DNA from: Dehalococcoidia bacterium | GTDB taxonomy: Bacteria > Chloroflexota > Dehalococcoidia > Bin125 | DNA: 64,000 bases | Reading direction: 5' to 3' | Assembly (NCBI GenBank): GCA_965242485.1 | Contig: CBDESM010000003.1 | Coordinates: 1,549,362 to 1,613,361 of the forward strand | In this document: in pieces, positions 12,682-43,547 of the stretch | How the letters are laid out: each line of letters opens with the position of its first letter | Position numbering within the stretch: position 1 is the first letter of the stretch | The notes under the pieces: model-generated | What the model was told of the DNA's origin: nothing | What the model saw: only the letters and a program-made list of their open reading frames with translations | Databases searched by the model: none | Position numbers and translations under genes: made by a program

Positions 12682-13533
12682 TCAGAAAGCGAGATCGAGC
12701 GCGATGTCGAGGGCGGGGGCGGAGTGGGTGAGCGCGCCGAGGGAGATGTAGTCGACGCCGGCGGCCGAGATCGCTTCGATGTCGGCGAGGGCGATGCCGC
12801 CGCTGGCTTCCGTGGTCGCGCCAGCGCGGGCCGCGAGCGCCGCGGCGGCGGGGAGGTCGGCGAGCGCGAAGTTGTCGAGCAGGAGCGAGCGCGCTCCCGC
12901 CGCCAGCGCTTCCTCGGCTTCCGCCGCGGAGGTGACTTCAACCTCGACTGCCGTGGCGGGGCCGACGTTCTGCAAGGCGGTGCGGACGGCGTCGCCGAGG
13001 CTGCCGCCGGCGGCGCGGACGGCGGTGATGTGGTTGTCCTTGATCAGGACGCCGGCGGCGAGGTTGTCGCGGTGGTTGAGGCCGCCGCCGCAGCGGACGG
13101 CATAGCGCTCGGCCGCGCGCAGTCCGGGCGTCGTCTTGCGGGTGTCGAGGATGCGGGCGCGGCCGCCGCGCCGGGCCGCGGCGACGGCGGCAGCGGTCAG
13201 CGTGGCCGTGCCGGAGAGGCGCTGGAGGAAGTTCAGCGCGACCCGCTCGCCGGCGAGGATGCCGGCGGCGGAGCCTTCGATGCGGGCGATTCGGCGGCCG
13301 GCGGCGACCTGCTCGCCGTCTGCGGCATCCGCCGCGAATTCCGCGCCGATGGCGGTGATCTCGAAGGCGGCGCTGGCGAAGCCGATGCCGCAGATGACGC
13401 CGTCGGCGCGGGCGATGATCTCGCCGGCCGCGTCGCGCATCCAATCGGCGAGCGACATCGTCGTGACGTCGAGGCCGGCGCGGTCCTCGGCAAGCGCGGC
13501 TGCGGCGAGCGCGCGGATGGCGGCGCGATCCAT
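12682..13533 (-). CDS. nadC: Nicotinate-nucleotide pyrophosphorylase (quinolinate PRTase)
   Basis: QPRTase-like sequence; start at MDRAAIR, 5 bp after the nadB stop. Confidence 0.85.
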   Translation of the reverse strand: MDRAAIRALAAAALAEDRAGLDVTTMSLADWMRDAAGEIIARADGVICGIGFASAAFEITAIGAEFAADAADGEQVAAGRRIARIEGSAAGILAGERVALNFLQRLSGTATLTAAAVAAARRGGRARILDTRKTTPGLRAAERYAVRCGGGLNHRDNLAAGVLIKDNHITAVRAAGGSLGDAVRTALQNVGPATAVEVEVTSAAEAEEALAAGARSLLLDNFALADLPAAAALAARAGATTEASGGIALADIEAISAAGVDYISLGALTHSAPALDIALDLAF

Positions 13534-30435: not shown

Positions 30436-30530
30436 GCCACGAGTTGATGCCGGGGTGGTCCGCTTGAGGCGGGCCTGAGAGCACACCCGCTGAACCTGAT
30501 CCGGGTAATGCCGGCGCAGGGAGCGTTCCA
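30436..30530 (+). promoter_or_regulatory. TPP (THI-box) riboswitch
   Basis: GGGGUG ... CUGAGA ... ACCC ... GAACCUGAUCCGGGUAAUGCCGGCGCAGGGA matches the THI-element consensus directly upstream of thiD. Confidence 0.75.
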
Positions 30531-30544
30531 GGTCCGCCCGCAGC

Positions 30545-31402
30545 TTGTCCGAACCGGCGCGAAAGCGTCAGCGCGTGCGCGTCATCTGCAGCATCGCCGG
30601 TTCCGATTCCTGCGCCGGCGCCGGCATCCAAGCCGACATCAAGGCCGCCGCCGCCTTCCTCGGCTGCCACGCCGCCACCGTGATCACCGCGATCACCGCC
30701 CAGAACACGCTCGGCGTCCAAAGCGCGCACCAGCTGCCCACCTCCGTCGTGCGGGCCCAGATCGCCTCCGTCTTCGACGACCTCGACGTGGCCGTGGTCA
30801 AGACCGGCATGCTCGGCGACTCCGAGATGATCGAAACGGTCGCCGACGAGCTCTCGGCGCGGCCGAGGCGCTGGACCGTCGTCGACCCGGTGATGATCTC
30901 CAAGACCGGCTTCGCGCTCTTGGCGGACGACGCGGTCGCCACGTTCACCAGCCTGATGCTGCCACTGGCCGACCTGCTCACGCCCAACACGCACGAGGCC
31001 GAACGGCTCACCGGCATCGCCGTGCGCACGCTCGACGACGCTAAGCGCGCCGGCCAAGCGCTGCTCGAACTCGGCGCCAAGGCCGTGCTCGTCAAGGGCG
31101 GGCATCTCGAGGAAGCGCCCGGCACCGACACGCTCGTCACCGCCGAGGGCTTCCAGATCTTCGAAGGCCGCTGGATCGAAACCAAGCACACGCACGGCAC
31201 CGGCTGCACCTACGCCTCCGCCATCGCCGCCCGCCTCGCCCATTCCTTCAACATCGACGACGCGGACCCGAGCGGCGCGATCGAGGACGCGAAGCTCTGG
31301 CTCGACGCCGGCGTGATCCAGTACGGCCTGCCGATCGGCCATGGCGTCGGCCCGACCAATCCCTTCTACGACCGCGAGTGGTACGGATGGAACGGCGGAT
31401 GA
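30545..31402 (+). CDS. thiD: Hydroxymethylpyrimidine/phosphomethylpyrimidine kinase
   Basis: PfkB-family ThiD-like sequence (VKTGML, GTGCT). Confidence 0.85.
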   Translation: MSEPARKRQRVRVICSIAGSDSCAGAGIQADIKAAAAFLGCHAATVITAITAQNTLGVQSAHQLPTSVVRAQIASVFDDLDVAVVKTGMLGDSEMIETVADELSARPRRWTVVDPVMISKTGFALLADDAVATFTSLMLPLADLLTPNTHEAERLTGIAVRTLDDAKRAGQALLELGAKAVLVKGGHLEEAPGTDTLVTAEGFQIFEGRWIETKHTHGTGCTYASAIAARLAHSFNIDDADPSGAIEDAKLWLDAGVIQYGLPIGHGVGPTNPFYDREWYGWNGG

Positions 31403-32055
31403 CGGGCGCGCCGCGGATCGGCCGCCTGCACGTGATCACCGACGAGGTCCTGCAAGACCGCTTCAGCCACGCGGAGCTGGCCCGTTTCGCCGCAGAGGGC
31501 GGCGCGGACGTCATCCAGTACCGCGAGAAGCGCCCGCTGGCCACGCGTGAGCTGGTCGAGGCCGCCGCCGCCGTCCGCGACGCGATCAACGGCAGCGGGG
31601 CCGGCCTGATCGTCAACGACCGCGTCGACGTCGCCGCGGCCGCCGGTGCGGACGTGCATCTCGGCCGCGATGACCTCGCCCCCGCCGCCGCCCGCCGCCT
31701 GCTCGGGCCCGGAGCGGTGATCGGCGGCACGGCCAACAGCATCGAGGAAGCGCGCCGCGTCGCGGCCGGGCCGGTCGATTACATCGGCGTCGGCCCCGTC
31801 TACGGCACTGCATCGAAGGGCGACCGCGCGGCGCCGAAGCTGGGGCTGGAGCGCCTGGCCGAGATCGCCGCGGCGGTGGACAAGCCCGTGATCGCGATCG
31901 GCGGCATCCAAGCCTCGAACGCGGCCGAGGTCATGGCGGCGGGCGCGCACGGCATCGCGGTCCTCTCCGCCGTGGTCTGCCGGGCCGATCCGCGCGCGGC
32001 GGCGGCCGAGTTCCGCGCCGCGCTCGATGCTGCGCTGGCGGAGCCGGGGCCATGA
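31398..32055 (+). CDS. thiE: Thiamine-phosphate synthase
   Basis: TMP-TENI family; start overlaps the thiD stop (ATGA). Confidence 0.8.
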
Positions 32056-34245: not shown

Positions 34246-34874
34246 GCGAACCCGGACTCTCCCAGCGCCTCTGGGAGGCCAACGCCGACTTGGCGCAGGC
34301 CTCCCTCGAGCATCCATTCGTGCAGGGCCTGGCCGACGGCACCCTGCCCGACGAGACCTACGCCTTCTTCTCCGGGCAGGATCACTTCTACCTCGACGTC
34401 TTCGCCCGCTGCTACGCGCTCGGCGCATACCGCGCGCCCGACCGCGCCTCGCGCCGCAAGTTCGGCCAGCTGCTCAGCGGGCTCGTCACCGAGGGCACGC
34501 TGCACGAGCGCACGGCCGAGGAATTGGACCTCGACTTGGAATCGGCTGAGCCCGCGCCGGCCGCGCGCGAGTACACCGACTTCCTGCTCGCCGCCAGCGC
34601 CGTCGGCACGCTCGGCGAGCACCTCGCCGCGATGGCCCCCTGCGCCCGCCTCTACCGCTTCCTCGGCACCCGGCTCGCCGACCAGCCCTACGACCCCAAG
34701 TACAAGTTCTGGATCGAGATGTACGCCGGCGACCGCTACGGCGGCAACGTCGCCGCCGTCGAGGCGCTGCTCGATCAACACGGGCGGGACGCGCCCGGCG
34801 AGCGCTCCAAGTACCGCACCGCGATGCAGCTGGAATGGAACTTCTTCGAGTCGGCCTGGAACGGAGGACAGTGA
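34242..34874 (+). CDS. tenA: Thiaminase II / aminopyrimidine aminohydrolase
   Basis: TenA/PqqC-family sequence; ATGA overlap with thiG. Confidence 0.8.
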
Positions 34875-36157
34875 TGCGCAGGATTCTCAAATTCCCCCTG
34901 CTCGTGGCGGCGCTCGCCATAGCCGCGGTGCTCGCCATCGCCTGCGAGCCCGAACCGCCGCGCGAAACCGCGCCGGTACCGCCGAATCTGCCGACCCTGA
35001 CCGCGACTCTGGGAACCGCCTACGAAACGGTGCTGCCCGAATCCGAGGGAACGCCCGCGCCCACGATCACACTCGCCGGCGTTCCCGACGGCCTCAAGTA
35101 CACGGCGGCGACGCGGACCTTGGCCGGCACGCCGGCCGAGCCGGGCGCCTTCACGCTTCAATACACCGCGACCAATACCGCCGGCGAGACCACCGTCGCG
35201 TTCGGCTTGGTCATCGAACCCGCCAGCGTCAAGCTGCAGCTCGACTGGCTGCCCAACACGAACCACACAGGAATCTACGCCGCACTTGAACAAGGCTGGT
35301 ACGACGCCGAAGGCATCGCACTCGAGATCCTGCCCTACAGCGGCGCGAACGGCGATGTCCTGGTCGCCGAGGGCGTCGCCGATGTCGCGTTCTCGTTCTC
35401 GACGACGCTCCCTTTCGCCCGCGCCCAAGGCCTCGAAGTCGTCAGCATCGCCGCCGTGCTGCAGAAGTCGCCCACCGCCATCGCCGTCCTCGCCGACGGC
35501 CCGATCTCGCGCCTGCGCGACCTCGACGACCGGCTCTACGGCGGCTTCGGACTGCCCTACGAGAAGCCGCAATGGACGGCCGTCGTCCAGGCCGACGGCG
35601 GCGAAGGCACCGTGCAGGGCGTGATCCTGAATACCGCCGCCTACGAGGCGCTCTATAACGGCAACGTCCAGGCTGCCGAGATTTTCGTTACTTGGGAGGG
35701 CATCGAGGCAGCCCAGCGCGGCGTCGACCTGCGCACTTGGACCTACCAGGACTTCGGCATCCCCGACCGCTACGGCGTGCTCCTGGTCGCGTCGGAATCG
35801 GCCGTCGAGGAAAACGCCGACGTCTTGGAACGGTTCCTCCGCGCCACCATCCGCGGCTACGAGTTCGCCGCCGCCAACCCGCGCGAAGCCTCCGACATGC
35901 TCGTCCGCGGCGCCGGCGAGGAAGCCTTCCCCAGCCTCGATCTCGTCTACGAGTCCGCCGAATTGCTCGGCGCCGAGTACTACCTCGACGCCAGCGCCCG
36001 CTGGGGCTCCCAAACGCTCGACCGCTGGACCGGCTACACCCGCTGGCTCTACCAAGCCGGCCTGCTCAGCAACGCCGACGGCGAGCAACTCTCCGAAGAG
36101 CTCGACTACGCCGCGATGTACACGGACGCGATCTACCAAGCCGCCCTCGACGACTGA
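34874..36157 (+). CDS. thiY: ABC transporter substrate-binding lipoprotein, NMT1/THI5 (ThiY-like), with an extra N-terminal Ig-like domain
   Basis: Lipoprotein signal (LAIAC), Ig-like segment, then NMT1/THI5-like periplasmic binding domain. Confidence 0.75.
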   Translation: MRRILKFPLLVAALAIAAVLAIACEPEPPRETAPVPPNLPTLTATLGTAYETVLPESEGTPAPTITLAGVPDGLKYTAATRTLAGTPAEPGAFTLQYTATNTAGETTVAFGLVIEPASVKLQLDWLPNTNHTGIYAALEQGWYDAEGIALEILPYSGANGDVLVAEGVADVAFSFSTTLPFARAQGLEVVSIAAVLQKSPTAIAVLADGPISRLRDLDDRLYGGFGLPYEKPQWTAVVQADGGEGTVQGVILNTAAYEALYNGNVQAAEIFVTWEGIEAAQRGVDLRTWTYQDFGIPDRYGVLLVASESAVEENADVLERFLRATIRGYEFAAANPREASDMLVRGAGEEAFPSLDLVYESAELLGAEYYLDASARWGSQTLDRWTGYTRWLYQAGLLSNADGEQLSEELDYAAMYTDAIYQAALDD

Positions 36158-36179
36158 GCGCGGCGATTGTCCATGCCGG

Positions 36180-36297
36180 CTCGCGCGTGCTCACGCTTAT
36201 CATTGAGGGACCGGACGAGAAAGGCCGCTGGCATATCGTTACCGTGTTCCCAACCAGCAACGCTGCCGACCTCGATCGCTACTGGCGATCCCGATAG
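36180..36297 (+). pseudogene. Remnant of the 3' end of a brnT-like toxin gene
   Basis: Frame encodes RVLTLIIEGPDEKGRWHIVTVFPTSNAADLDRYWRSR, which aligns to the C-terminus of the BrnT-like protein at 42308-42625; no N-terminal half. Confidence 0.35.
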
Positions 36298-36317
36298 GGC
36301 GAAGAACGCGTACTCCG

Positions 36318-36569
36318 ATGCACGACCCCGACGATCCCGACGCTGAGTTCTACGAAGACGATGACGATGTGGAAATCGTCCTCGGCGGGCCGCCGCTCTG
36401 GGGGTTCGAGGTCTTCTTCGAAGACGACGAGTTTGAGCGCCTGCTCCGCATGCAAGGCGACTCCGGCGGCAAATTCAACGTCTTCATCCATGACATCGCG
36501 ATGCGGGCGCTGGCCGAGTGGGAAGCCGGCGCGGCCGACCGTCCAGCGCCGGTCACCGCGGCCGACTGA
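36318..36569 (+). CDS. Orphan BrnA-like ribbon-helix-helix protein with acidic N-terminus
   Basis: C-terminal KFNVFIHDIAMRALAEWEA aligns with NRYLKDLAMRAIEEWQA of the three paralogs at 42642-43547. Confidence 0.45.
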   Translation: MHDPDDPDAEFYEDDDDVEIVLGGPPLWGFEVFFEDDEFERLLRMQGDSGGKFNVFIHDIAMRALAEWEAGAADRPAPVTAAD

Positions 36570-36602: not shown

Positions 36603-37372
<770 letters not shown>

Positions 37373-37376
<4 letters not shown>

Positions 37377-38152
37377 ACGCCGGCCGCCAGCGCAGCTGGG
37401 CGCTCAGCGCCGGCGCGCCGCTCGCATTGATCATCGTCGTGCTCGCCGTCTGGCAGGCCTACGTCTGGCTCTCCGGCATCCGCCCGCAGATCCTGCCCGG
37501 CCCGGTCCGCATCGTCCGCGAGAGCGTCCAAGCGGCGGACCTGATCTGGTCGCACTCGCTCGTCACCATGAGCGAGGTCGCGATCGGCCTCGCCATCTCG
37601 ATCACCGGCGCGCTCCTGCTCGGCCTCGCGCTCGATCTCTCGGCCCCCGCGCGCCGCGCGCTCTACCCCCTCATCGTCGCCTCGCAGACCGTCCCGATCC
37701 CCGTCGTCGCGCCGCTGATGATCGTCTGGTTCGGCTTCGGCATCCTGCCCAAGATCATCGTGATCAGCCTCTTCACCTTCGTCCCCATCGTGCTCGGCTT
37801 CACCGCCGGCCTCGCCGCCGTCGACCGCGAGGCGCTCGACCTGATGCGCACCTTCCGCGCCTCGCGCTGGCAGCTCTACCGCCACCTCAAGATCCCCGCG
37901 GCCCTGCCGGACCTCTTCACCGGACTCCGCATCGGCGCGATCTACGCGGTGATCGGCGCTATCTTCGGCGAGCTGGCCGGATCAATAGATGGGCTCGGCA
38001 TCTTCATGGAGCAAGCGCGCCTCTCCTTCCGCCTCGACTTGGTCTTCGGCGCGATCTTCGTCAGCACCCTGCTCTCCTACCTGCTCTTCCTCGCCGTCGT
38101 CGCCGCCGAGCGCCTGCTCGTCCCGTCGCGCTTCGCCGACAGGGAGCGTTGA
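37373..38152 (+). CDS. ABC transporter permease (ThiX-like)
   Basis: Six TM segments with a BPD-transporter-type inner-membrane fold; overlaps the neighbouring genes. Confidence 0.8.
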
Positions 38153-38796
38153 TCGTGCCCGGCGAGCTGCCGCGCCTGATGCTCGTGACCGACCGCGGAG
38201 CGACCCGCGGCCGCCCGCTTGAAGACGTCGTCCACGCGGCCGCGGTGGGCGCGGACGGGCGCTTGTTCGTGCAGGTGCGCGAACCCGATCTCGGCGAAGA
38301 TGCGCTGGCCGAACTTTGCGAGCGCATCCTCCGCAGCCTCGAACCCTCCGTCCGCGTCGCCGTCAACGGGAACCCCGCGGTCGCCGCCCGGCTCGGCATC
38401 GGCCTCCACCTGCCCGCCCGCGCGCCTGCGGCGGAGCCGGGCGCAAGCCTCGTCGGACGTTCCGTTCACGACCGGTCGGAAACCGATGCCGCCGTCGCCG
38501 AGAAGGTCGATTACGCGGTGATCGGCACCGTCTTCGAGACCGCGTCCCACCCCGGACGCGAAGCCGGGGGGCTCGAACACGTCCGCGTGCTCGCCCAGCG
38601 GCTCGGCGGCATTCCGGCCTACGCGATCGGCGGGATGACGTCCGCCAACGCCGCGCTCGCGATCGCGTCGGGGGCGCACGGCGCGGCGGTCCGCTCCGCC
38701 ATCCTCGCGTCCGAAAACCCGGCCGGCGCCGCGCGCACGATCCTCGCCGCCGTCGAGGCGATGGCTGCCGCCGCCGCTCCGTCTGCTGCCGGCTGA
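38149..38796 (+). CDS. TMP-TENI family protein (second ThiE paralog or TenI-like thiazole tautomerase)
   Basis: ThiE/TenI-fold sequence (LMLVTDR ... AIGGM). Confidence 0.65.
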   Translation: MIVPGELPRLMLVTDRGATRGRPLEDVVHAAAVGADGRLFVQVREPDLGEDALAELCERILRSLEPSVRVAVNGNPAVAARLGIGLHLPARAPAAEPGASLVGRSVHDRSETDAAVAEKVDYAVIGTVFETASHPGREAGGLEHVRVLAQRLGGIPAYAIGGMTSANAALAIASGAHGAAVRSAILASENPAGAARTILAAVEAMAAAAAPSAAG

Positions 38797-41789: not shown

Positions 41790-41846
41790 GCATCTGATAC
41801 CCCGGACGCAAAGCCGGGCTGCCGCGTACTCGCGCCACAAGAGGAG

Positions 41847-42183
41847 GTTGGTGGCCCGGGGCAGAGTCGAGCTGCCGGCGCCGCGCCTCCGGCAATGGCA
41901 GCCAGTGCCTGCTCGCATCGCAAGCGGAAAGGTTGGTGGCCCGGGGCAGGGTCGAACTGCCGGCACCACGCCTCCGGCAATGGCAGTCAGTCGTGTGCTG
42001 GTGGCGCAAGTGGGAAAGGTTGGTGGCCCGGGGCAGAGTCGAACTGCCGGCACCACGCCTTCGGCAATGGCAGTCAGTCGTGTGCTGGTGGCGCAAGTGG
42101 GAAAGGTTGGTGGCCCGGGGCAGAGTCGAGCTGCCGGTGCCGCGCCTTCGGCAATGGCAGTCAGTCGTGTGCTGGTGGCGCAA
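41847..42183 (-). repeat. Four tandem ~87-bp repeats, each containing a degenerate tRNA-Phe 3' portion (T-arm plus acceptor plus CCA)
   Basis: Unit starts at about 41847, 41921, 42008, 42095; each carries GGCAGTTCGACTCTGCCCCGGGCCACCA on the minus strand. Confidence 0.6.
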
Positions 42184-42259
42184 GTGGAAAGGTTGGTGGC
42201 CAGGGGCAGAGTCGAACTGCCGACACCACGATTTTCAGTCGTGTGCTCTACCAACTGAG
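42184..42259 (-). tRNA. tRNA-Phe (anticodon GAA)
   Basis: Cloverleaf; anticodon loop CTGAAAA; T-loop GTTCGACTC; CCA encoded. Confidence 0.85.
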
Positions 42260-42307
42260 CTACCTGGCCGCGGGCACCAATCATACAGTGCAGCGGGAGG
42301 CCGAGTG

Positions 42308-42625
42308 ATGCCGCCGGACGTTGACGAGCTGGATTGGAGTGCCGACATTCCGTCGAAGCTCGGACGACACGGCTTGACGACCGACGATGCGCAGGACGTG
42401 TTCAGAATCCGTCCGCTGCTCGCGTGGCAGAAGGAGGAATGGCAGTTGGGAGACGATGGACTGCTCCGTCTGAGGCCTCGACGCGTCAGGATGATCGGCC
42501 CTGACTACTCGGGGCGCTTCCTGACGTTTATCCTTGAAGCACCGGACGATCGTCGCGTGTCACAGATCGTCTCGGGCTGGCCGGCTACGCGGCGCGACAT
42601 CGCCCGCTACCGCCGAGCCAGATGA
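42308..42625 (+). CDS. brnT: BrnT-like (DUF497) toxin of a type II toxin-antitoxin module
   Basis: GRHGLTTDDAQDVF and GRFLTFILEAPDDRRVSQIVSGWPATRRDIARY resemble the BrnT family; toxin-first gene order. Confidence 0.55.
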   Translation: MPPDVDELDWSADIPSKLGRHGLTTDDAQDVFRIRPLLAWQKEEWQLGDDGLLRLRPRRVRMIGPDYSGRFLTFILEAPDDRRVSQIVSGWPATRRDIARYRRAR

Positions 42626-42641
42626 TCCGCGCGACTGCACA

Positions 42642-42929
42642 ATGACCGACTACGACGACTGCATCTGCCCGAATGACAGCAGGGACCACCTCCCCCACTG
42701 CGCCTTCGCCGATGAGGACCAATGGGAAGAGGGCGAGATCATCGAAGGCAAGACCGTGAGGATGCATGTGCGCGCCGTTTTCGAAGGCGACGAGTACCGC
42801 GCTTTCTCGGCGATGATGCGCGCGAACGGCGAGTGGCATCCCAACCGCTATCTCAAAGACTTGGCGATGCGCGCCATCGAGGAATGGCAGGCAGTGCCGC
42901 AGCACTCTGCCGTCGCGGAGGGCGACTGA
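42642..42929 (+). CDS. BrnA-like ribbon-helix-helix antitoxin paralog 1 with Cys/His-rich acidic N-terminal extension
   Basis: DDCICPNDSRDHLPHC N-terminal segment, C-terminal RHH (KTVRMHVRAVFEGDEYRAFSAMMRANGEWHPNRYLKDLAMRAIEEW). Confidence 0.5.
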   Translation: MTDYDDCICPNDSRDHLPHCAFADEDQWEEGEIIEGKTVRMHVRAVFEGDEYRAFSAMMRANGEWHPNRYLKDLAMRAIEEWQAVPQHSAVAEGD

Positions 42930-42935
42930 CCGGGC

Positions 42936-43232
42936 ATGCCTGCTACCGCTGATCCGGGCTGTCGTCTAGACGACTGCATTTGCCCGGCAGACAGACGGGA
43001 TCACCGGCCCGATTGCCCGTATTCCGATATCGGGCTCTGGGACGACGAAGAAGATGGCGTTGGCATGATCGTACGGGTCCCGTTCGAGCAGCAGCAGTAC
43101 GGCGCGCTCCGCGCGATGATGCGCGCGCATGGCGAGGACAACCCCAACCGTTTCGTTCGAGACATGATGCTCCGCGCTATCGAGGAATGGCAGGCGGTGC
43201 CGCCGCACTCCGCCGTCGCGGAGGGCGACTGA
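42936..43232 (+). CDS. BrnA-like antitoxin paralog 2 (diverged copy)
   Basis: DDCICPADRRDHRPDC ... MIVRVPFEQQQYGALRAMMRAHGEDNPNRFVRDMMLRAIEEW. Confidence 0.5.
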   Translation: MPATADPGCRLDDCICPADRRDHRPDCPYSDIGLWDDEEDGVGMIVRVPFEQQQYGALRAMMRAHGEDNPNRFVRDMMLRAIEEWQAVPPHSAVAEGD

Positions 43233-43238
43233 CCGGGC

Positions 43239-43547
43239 ATGGCCTCCGCTGTTGATCTGGAAGATCGCCTAGACGACTGCATCTGCCCGAATGACAGCAG
43301 GGACCACCTCCCCCACTGCGCCTTCGCCGATGAGGACCAATGGGAAGAGGGCGAGATCATCGAAGGCAAGACCGTGAGGATGCATGTGCGCGCCGTTTTC
43401 GAAGGCGACGAGTACCGTGCTTTCTCGGCGATGATGCGCGCGAACGGCGAGTGGCATCCCAACCGCTATCTCAAGGACTTGGCGATGCGCGCCGTCGAGG
43501 AGTGGCAGGCGGTGCCGCCACATTCCGCTGTTGCGGAGACTGATTAG
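43239..43547 (+). CDS. BrnA-like antitoxin paralog 3 (near-identical to paralog 1)
   Basis: Near-identical DNA to 42650-42930. Confidence 0.5.
   Translation: MASAVDLEDRLDDCICPNDSRDHLPHCAFADEDQWEEGEIIEGKTVRMHVRAVFEGDEYRAFSAMMRANGEWHPNRYLKDLAMRAVEEWQAVPPHSAVAETD

Follow-up and report, generated by a model that had tools for sequence, protein, structure and literature searches.

What occupies the 445 nucleotides (nt) that separate thiY from thiZ in the thiamine operon of a Dehalococcoidia bacterium (assembly GCA_965242485.1)? The stretch analysed here, which we call the window, comprises 64,000 nt of contig CBDESM010000003.1 (positions 1,549,362 to 1,613,361 of the forward strand), and coordinates given without a genome handle refer to it. 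An initial annotation placed an insert between the gene for the substrate-binding protein (thiY, which ends at 36157) and that for the ATPase (thiZ, which starts at 36603) of this operon, and the list of open reading frames (ORFs) confirms it: the gap holds the frame of a toxin remnant and an ORF of 83 amino acids (aa). Here, we propose that the locus is very likely a decayed type II toxin-antitoxin (TA) module, whose orphan antitoxin gene has been left behind in the thiamine operon.

Toxin remnant and deletion junction

The locus was compared with its counterparts in related genomes, designated by L numbers below; a scan of one genome per species with ThiY as the query placed these organisms among metagenome-assembled genomes (MAGs) of Dehalococcoidia (Chloroflexota). 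Between thiY and thiZ, the window contains the following features.

36170-36195, plus strand: deletion junction, with the crossover in TGCC at 36174-36177
36173-36346, plus strand: out-of-frame ORF, 57 codons from the kept toxin ATG (listed as an ORF from the TTG at 36167)
36178-36297, plus strand: 3' toxin remnant, about 40 codons and a TAG stop, with the N-terminal two thirds gone
36318-36569, plus strand: acidic antitoxin-like gene, an intact 83-aa ORF; residues 1-28 form an acidic disordered tail and residues 29-72 a predicted strand-helix-helix

The frame that ends at the TAG at 36295-36297 reads ...HAGSRVLTLIIEGPDEKGRWHIVTVFPTSNAADLDRYWRSR in translation. It is identical to the corresponding sequence of L006, matches the C-terminus of the intact orthologue of L007 at 36/37 residues, and has a tblastn E-value of 5e-15 against the toxin of L001. 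Within the window itself, it aligns with the C-terminus of a 105-aa protein encoded at 42308-42625 (41% identity over 37 aa, E 1e-6, pairwise BLASTP). The initial annotation had read about 38 residues of a toxin's 3' end here and had tied them to that 105-aa protein; this alignment is significant and the remnant is real, its extent now being corrected to the roughly 40 codons listed above.

How was the rest of the gene lost? Pairwise alignments give an internal deletion of 207 bp relative to L006 and of 208 bp relative to L007, and pairwise and multiple alignments agree on the position of the crossover. The junction falls in a pair of imperfect 15-nt direct repeats that the undeleted alleles show, one (ATGCCTGCTCCGCGCG) at the start codon and the other (GTGCCGGCTCGCGCG) at about codon 68, and 3' of the junction the window equals L006 at 157/157 nt. 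The toxin ATG (36173-36175) and its leader of 13-15 nt have been kept, but the ATG no longer shares a frame with the last 40 codons. The truncation that had been proposed thus holds as far as the missing N-terminal two thirds are concerned, but it arose by an internal deletion and not by loss of the 5' end.

The deleted part holds the HAxxRM and H-G/A motif region and the histidine that aligns with the His of the KHG motif of BrnT-like toxins, a residue that is essential in BrnT and RelS (PMC13284704). From its sequence, the window toxin is therefore judged inactive: this region has been deleted, the N-terminal two thirds with the presumed catalytic motifs are gone, and what is left is out of frame. 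The ORF that starts at the kept ATG overlaps the antitoxin gene by 29 nt, and its wrong-frame C-terminal sequence is the same as that of L006 ORF 281-661 after a 1-bp frameshift; this ORF probably has no meaning of its own. Given intact syntenic 110-aa orthologues in relatives and the disabling deletion here, 36173-36297 should be annotated as a pseudogene.

The same junction in related genomes

An intact basic toxin ORF of 109-110 aa, followed by a partner of 80-84 aa, lies at the thiY-thiZ junction in L001, L002-L005, L007/L008 and L079/L080, genomes with about 90-93% nucleotide identity to the window where measured. The toxin ORF begins 12-15 nt past the thiY stop and ends 20 nt before the antitoxin gene. 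In L006, the nearest relative of all (2.9 kb compared, 97.4% nucleotide identity), the toxin DNA is present at full length but a 1-bp deletion disrupts the frame after about 40 codons; the antitoxin gene is intact. The idea that the 83-aa ORF is the orphan of a TA module is thus borne out by an intact toxin in relatives at the very place where the window has its deletion.

Outside this clade, the insert is absent. In L009, 14 nt separate the TAG of thiY from the ATG of thiZ; this genome has about 86% nucleotide identity to the window, with ThiY 81% and ThiZ 85% identical at the amino acid level. In 15 more distant genomes (L010-L024, ThiY about 58-64% identical), tblastn found no match to either toxin or antitoxin, and the matched segments of thiY and thiZ are at most about 160 nt apart. 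The initial annotation had asked whether orthologous operons lack the insert; those outside the clade do, and the members of the clade carry an intact toxin of the same family. In composition, the TA genes (G+C 59-65%, G+C at third codon positions 70-83%) differ from the flanking thi genes (68-74% and 86-95%, respectively), the G+C content of the whole window being 69%. Thus, the insert is an ancestral and clade-specific resident of the operon, and only the toxin deletion is recent in this genome.

Where both genes are intact, the ratio of non-synonymous to synonymous substitution rates (dN/dS) lies near 0.2 in the antitoxin gene and at 0.2-0.4 in the toxin gene, and both genes are under purifying selection across the clade. 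Two side observations concern the pace and the uniformity of change. Within a genome pair, the TA genes have 2-5 times the synonymous divergence (dS) of thiZ and thiX; in L001 vs L002, for instance, dS is 1.43 and 0.63 for the TA genes and 0.27 and 0.22 for thiZ and thiX. Possible causes are recombination with paralogues, a relaxed codon bias or noise from small samples. In the otherwise intact thi-locus toxins of L007 (314-646) and L008 (81-413), Tyr replaces the KHG-aligned His of other members; from the sequence, the toxin of this lineage may be attenuated.

These comparisons suggest the following course of events. In a recent ancestor of a single Dehalococcoidia clade, a toxin-first pair (an approximately 110-aa basic protein, then an approximately 83-aa acidic one) would have inserted at the thiY-thiZ junction. 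In genomes where it is intact, the basic toxin would presumably act as an RNase and the acidic partner presumably as its neutraliser, both being transcribed within the thiamine operon. A 1-bp frameshift, as in the sister genome L006, may have preceded the deletion. Slippage or recombination between the imperfect direct repeats would then have removed the 207-208 bp and left the toxin dead, with the antitoxin gene staying intact and probably still expressed. Loss of an antitoxin before its toxin would be lethal, so decay that starts with the toxin is the expected order. The antitoxin most likely persists because the toxin loss is recent and because the gene lies midway in an essential operon.

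Family resemblance of toxin and antitoxin

Several features are those of a generic type II TA layout. The two genes are small, adjacent and co-oriented, and the pair is conserved at the thi locus and at other loci; the toxin comes first in all loci examined (L001, L002, L007, L079 and others), and in the intact pair a basic toxin (isoelectric point (pI) 11.3) is joined to an acidic antitoxin (pI 4.05). To which family do they belong? Three intact thi-locus toxins score best against DUF4258 (PF14076) with 19.6-20.4 bits (E about 1e-3), below the cut-off of 25, in matches that span up to positions 2-70 of the 71-position profile; the Pfam scan gave them no BrnT_toxin match. The 105-aa paralogue reaches 15 bits against BrnT_toxin (PF04365; E 0.032), below the cut-off of 34.5.

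Profiles reach somewhat further. A profile of two toxin subfamilies, searched against 1.84 billion representative proteins, found 67 at E <= 1e-3. Among 65 representatives of the family, 16 match BrnT_toxin (E <= 0.01, best 1.2e-7) and 10 match DUF4258 (best 2.6e-7), while a single one matches a BECR nuclease family. Against the PDB, the 65-sequence profile found 7vd7_A (E 7e-4), the toxin of a Salmonella TA complex with a clear BrnT-type sequence, and RelS of Mycobacterium tuberculosis (9sdc_C, E 6e-3); a narrow profile of 7 toxin sequences yielded noise alone in the same database, so the broader one was needed. An AlphaFold2 (AF2) model from 7 sequences has an H-H-E-E-E-E-E-E-H topology (H, helix; E, strand) at a mean predicted local distance difference test (pLDDT) score of 53, which is too weak for a fold assignment. 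Its top Foldseek match is again 7vd7_A (probability 0.93, TM-score 0.41-0.47), followed by HigB2 and RelE, all at E > 0.1.

Among the characterised systems close to the pair is BrnT/BrnA of Brucella abortus (PF04365; PDB 3U97; Salmonella complex 7VD7). brnTA modules are toxin-first, with an antitoxin that carries a C-terminal ribbon-helix-helix (RHH) domain (PMC11980606); the pair described here shares that gene order and has a putative DNA-binding strand-helix-helix at the C-terminus of its antitoxin. The toxins are likewise small and basic, with a (K/R)-H-G-like N-terminal motif and a C-terminal '..I(V/I)(T/S)....(E/D)..RY' segment, both aligned to 7vd7_A. In the family consensus this motif reads 'HGL': the BrnT His aligns in most members (Tyr in L007/L008), and the position of the Lys is taken by Arg or Asp. 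In BrnT, the catalytic or toxicity residues are the Lys-His of the KHG motif and Arg72 (PMC13284704). There are also differences from BrnT: all members in or near the window stay below the Pfam gathering score, the thi-locus toxins carry HAxxRM, which is typical of DUF4258, instead of the W-D..K..N..KHG of BrnT, and the Arg of the BrnT 'ISAR' segment appears to be replaced by Phe or Trp-Pro in the thi-locus family. The antitoxin, for its part, differs from BrnA in matching neither the BrnA nor the CopG Pfam family and in its long acidic N-terminal tail.

Two other systems invite comparison. DUF4258, an uncharacterised family of the RelE/ParE superfamily, provides the best Pfam match of the thi-locus toxins, but the scores are below its cut-off and DUF4258 modules are antitoxin-first (PMC11980606), whereas the order here is toxin-first. 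RelS-RelI of M. tuberculosis (PDB 9SDC) also has a BrnT-like toxin whose gene is ahead of that of its antitoxin (PMC13284704), and the profile match covers the HG motif and the 'IGPD..GRLL.LV' strand. RelS, however, has 77 aa where the toxins here have about 110, and RelI is described as a putative helix-turn-helix protein without structural homologues, not as RHH-like. The term 'BrnT-like' in the initial annotation therefore expresses an approximate likeness, with no Pfam threshold reached and DUF4258 as the better-scoring family at the thi locus. A fair label for the toxin is a divergent, unclassified BrnT/DUF4258-like member of the RelE/ParE superfamily, its antitoxin being probably of the RHH type; the pair resembles brnTA but is not a demonstrable member of the BrnT family.

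The antitoxin family is tiny, with 25 proteins by profile search. Among 5.8 billion proteins, the 83-aa protein has just 7 close homologue clusters (80-100% identity), and its gene sits between thiY and thiZ on every homologue contig that is long enough to show it. Asp and Glu make up 23 of the 83 residues. In its AF2 model, residues 29-36 are extended and residues 38-46 and 52-72 form helices, with a pLDDT of 75-83 for residues 30-70, and the best PDB match of the antitoxin profile is the RHH protein HP0222, a weak one at E 0.09. With three paralogues encoded in the window at 42642-43547, the protein shares 30-33% identity (tblastn E 4e-4 to 3e-3) and 17 invariant columns, which are concentrated in the C-terminal half. 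The alignment of its C-terminus with these paralogues and its acidity, both claimed at the outset, are thus upheld, and the RHH fold proposed along with them is plausible from the model. We suggest that the 83-aa ORF should be annotated as a putative orphan antitoxin and not as a component of thiamine transport. Separately, 14 of 15 nt at the 3' end of the antitoxin gene match the thiY-thiZ spacer of L009, and an origin of this end as a remnant of the ancestral intergenic sequence was considered; we reject the match as chance because the C-terminal '...PAPVTAAD' is also kept in family members at unrelated loci.

The paralogous module lies about 6 kb downstream and has two components.

42308-42625, plus strand: intact 105-aa paralogous toxin gene, adjoining tRNA-Phe
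42642-42929, 42936-43232 and 43239-43547, plus strand: three tandem antitoxin paralogues of the 83-aa protein

Over its full length, the 105-aa toxin is 32% identical to the intact thi-locus toxins, which makes the two pairs paralogous, and the module as a whole is a distant paralogue at 31-38% identity. The thi-locus antitoxin is closer to proteins from unrelated loci in other genomes (57-60% identity to P0094/P0095 and 42-44% to P0101-P0103) than to those of the tRNA-Phe-locus type (28-35%). It had been suggested that the thi locus carries a dispersed member of the same family 6 kb from an intact module. The common family stands, and these identities indicate a dispersed member and not a recent local duplicate. 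In L009, a stretch of about 400 bp past tRNA-Phe (12918-13314) is without similarity to the 105-aa toxin; as this genome also lacks the thi insert, both modules may be specific to the clade of the window and L001.

Some further observations concern the tRNA-Phe module and its kin. Antitoxin copies 1 and 3 at 42642-43547 share 97% identity, against 57% for copy 2, while the orthologous locus of L001 (10266-10891) has one toxin and one antitoxin. Beside the module, an 87-nt unit is repeated in 4.5 tandem copies (41845-42230, 91% matches) that overlap the 3' part of tRNA-Phe(GAA) (42194-42269, minus strand), so that partial tRNA copies trail the gene; similar partial copies occur in L009 and L001. 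Successive rounds of integration and excision at the tRNA, right beside an intact TA module, may have left this repeat as a scar. Arrays of the same family are found at loci unconnected with thiamine: in L074 (5215-6990), a toxin gene is followed by three antitoxin paralogues, another toxin gene with a frameshift and one more antitoxin gene, L076 (2-1690) has alternating toxin (weak DUF4258 match) and antitoxin genes, and L078 (1071-2318) has a further array. In two 143-aa proteins from metagenome contigs (P0089 and P0091), the first 35-40 residues of a tRNA-Phe-locus toxin are fused in frame to the antitoxin leader and the full antitoxin, which looks like an independent internal deletion in relatives, with the middle and 3' part of the toxin lost. 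Toxin loss and antitoxin surplus thus recur in the family, as in these chimeras, the L074 array and the three-antitoxin locus of the window.

Operon setting, alternatives and significance

The operon around the insert is headed by a riboswitch for thiamine pyrophosphate (TPP), and its gene names are backed by the Pfam families of the L001 orthologues.

30441-30539, plus strand: TPP riboswitch at the head of the thiamine operon (Rfam RF00059, 66.9 bits vs a gathering score of 54.3)
Operon order, plus strand: TPP riboswitch, thiD, thiE-like, thiO, thiS, thiG, tenA, thiY, toxin remnant, antitoxin, thiZ, thiX, thiE-like
34835-36157, plus strand: thiY-type gene for an NMT1/THI5-like substrate-binding protein with a He_PIG extension at its N-terminus, adjoining the insert on the upstream side (L001 orthologue with PF09084 NMT1 and PF05345 in the Pfam scan)
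36603-37376, plus strand: thiZ-type ABC ATPase gene, downstream neighbour of the insert (L001 orthologue with PF00005)

The genes of the operon follow the riboswitch on the plus strand and are tightly packed. The spacers around the pair are only 12-15, 20 and 33 nt long, so the two genes are most likely transcribed with the thiamine operon, and the 12-15 nt between the thiY stop and the intact pair would leave no space for a promoter of its own. Co-transcription with an operon headed by a TPP riboswitch is thus probable. In a consensus scan, which is uninformative for Chloroflexota, nothing promoter-like turned up between 30 and 44 kb and nothing terminator-like inside the operon. Two further traits of the operon were seen in passing. 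It contains two TMP-TENI (thiE/tenI-like) genes, one near its start (31378-32055) and one at its end (38149-38796). In addition, ThiY has an N-terminal extension of about 100 aa in the window (34835-35230), L001 and L009 (Pfam He_PIG in L001), which is missing from the 342-aa ThiY of L002 and L079, members of the same clade.

What speaks against a decayed TA module? Scans of the window proteins with Pfam, NCBIfam and PADLOC gave no toxin or antitoxin match above threshold. The toxin model is poor and every Foldseek E-value exceeds 0.1, and the position of BrnT Arg72 appears to be occupied in the family by Phe or Trp-Pro. For the antitoxin, there was no Pfam match (BrnA and CopG included), no Foldseek match to the monomer model, and no match in hhalign comparisons with CopG and Arc sequences. 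Between the window and L006, the antitoxin differs at 3 codons by 3 substitutions, 2 of them non-synonymous, which is too few to gauge present selection on the orphan. Finally, the source is a MAG, in which the deletion could reflect variation within the population or, with lower probability, a collapse in the assembly. All of these points count against the reading, which in our view remains very likely given the intact orthologues, the deletion junction and the selection seen across the clade.

Of the other explanations, the one that fares best is that the orphan has been kept for a function of its own: it might counter addiction or neutralise paralogous toxins encoded elsewhere in the genome (the 105-aa toxin at 42308, for example), or it might be an RHH repressor recruited to the thiamine operon or to other TA loci. 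The antitoxin gene is indeed intact in both genomes with a dead toxin, the window and L006, its dN/dS across the clade is low, and the family shows a tendency towards extra antitoxins and lost toxins (42642-43547, L074, P0089/P0091). This low dN/dS, however, comes almost wholly from toxin-bearing lineages, and the substitutions between the window and L006 say nothing on the orphan state. Moreover, the 83-aa antitoxin shares just 30-33% identity with the three antitoxins of the cognate type that already adjoin the 105-aa toxin, and a search for inverted repeats that might be operators around the insert gave weak GC-rich matches, none of them convincing and none an operator-like repeat conserved with the insert. 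We therefore regard a function of its own as improbable.

Could the deletion itself be an artefact of assembly or population, the organism's toxin gene being really intact or just frameshifted? The source is evidently metagenome-derived, given that the relatives are all MAGs or metagenome contigs, and short repeats like those that flank the deletion occasionally mislead assemblers and polishers. These repeats, however, are of about 15 nt, imperfect and far shorter than reads; toxin loss in the lineage is independently supported by the inactivated toxin of L006; and the window antitoxin and the 105-aa toxin are each recorded on a 2.6-Mb contig. An artefact is thus very unlikely. Even less credible is that the 83-aa protein and its upstream partner were lineage-specific accessories of the thiamine transporter or pathway, the upstream gene being lost here, since for all the tight packing of the operon (12-33-nt spacers) and the lack of a curated family for either protein, the orthologous operons of L009 and 15 further Dehalococcoidia are without the pair, homologous pairs and arrays occur at unrelated loci (tRNA-Phe, L074, L076, L078), family members match BrnT_toxin, DUF4258 and a BECR nuclease family, and the composition of the pair is unlike that of the thi genes.

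With a decayed TA module as the favoured explanation, what might the intact pair have done in such an operon? One speculative and improbable option is that it forms an RNase switch coupled to thiamine starvation: the pair would be expressed solely upon opening of the operon by the TPP riboswitch, and the dosage of the toxin would thereby be tied to cofactor status. In the window lineage the switch would have been dismantled, and the surviving putative RHH protein, with the DNA binding that we infer for it, may have been retained to regulate genes or to cross-neutralise paralogous toxins.

That a type II TA locus degrades and leaves its antitoxin as an orphan is familiar and well documented, and the locus described here resembles other decayed chromosomal TA loci in that the toxin was lost first (by frameshift, then by deletion) while the antitoxin ORF stayed open. 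It differs from the usual case in that the series from intact to frameshifted to deleted can be read across near-identical genomes, and in that the locus lies within a riboswitch-headed operon for biosynthesis and transport. Mildly new, therefore, are this full decay series, the position in a riboswitch operon and an unannotated family that bridges BrnT and DUF4258.

Thus, the locus offers a clean and datable example of the death of a chromosomal TA locus. Over genomes that are 86% to 97% identical, it leads from an empty site through insertion, an intact pair under purifying selection and a frameshift to a deletion, mediated by microhomology, after which the antitoxin is an orphan. The analysis also draws attention to a small, unannotated TA family of Dehalococcoidia, with no Pfam model for its antitoxin and with arrays in which antitoxins are in surplus.

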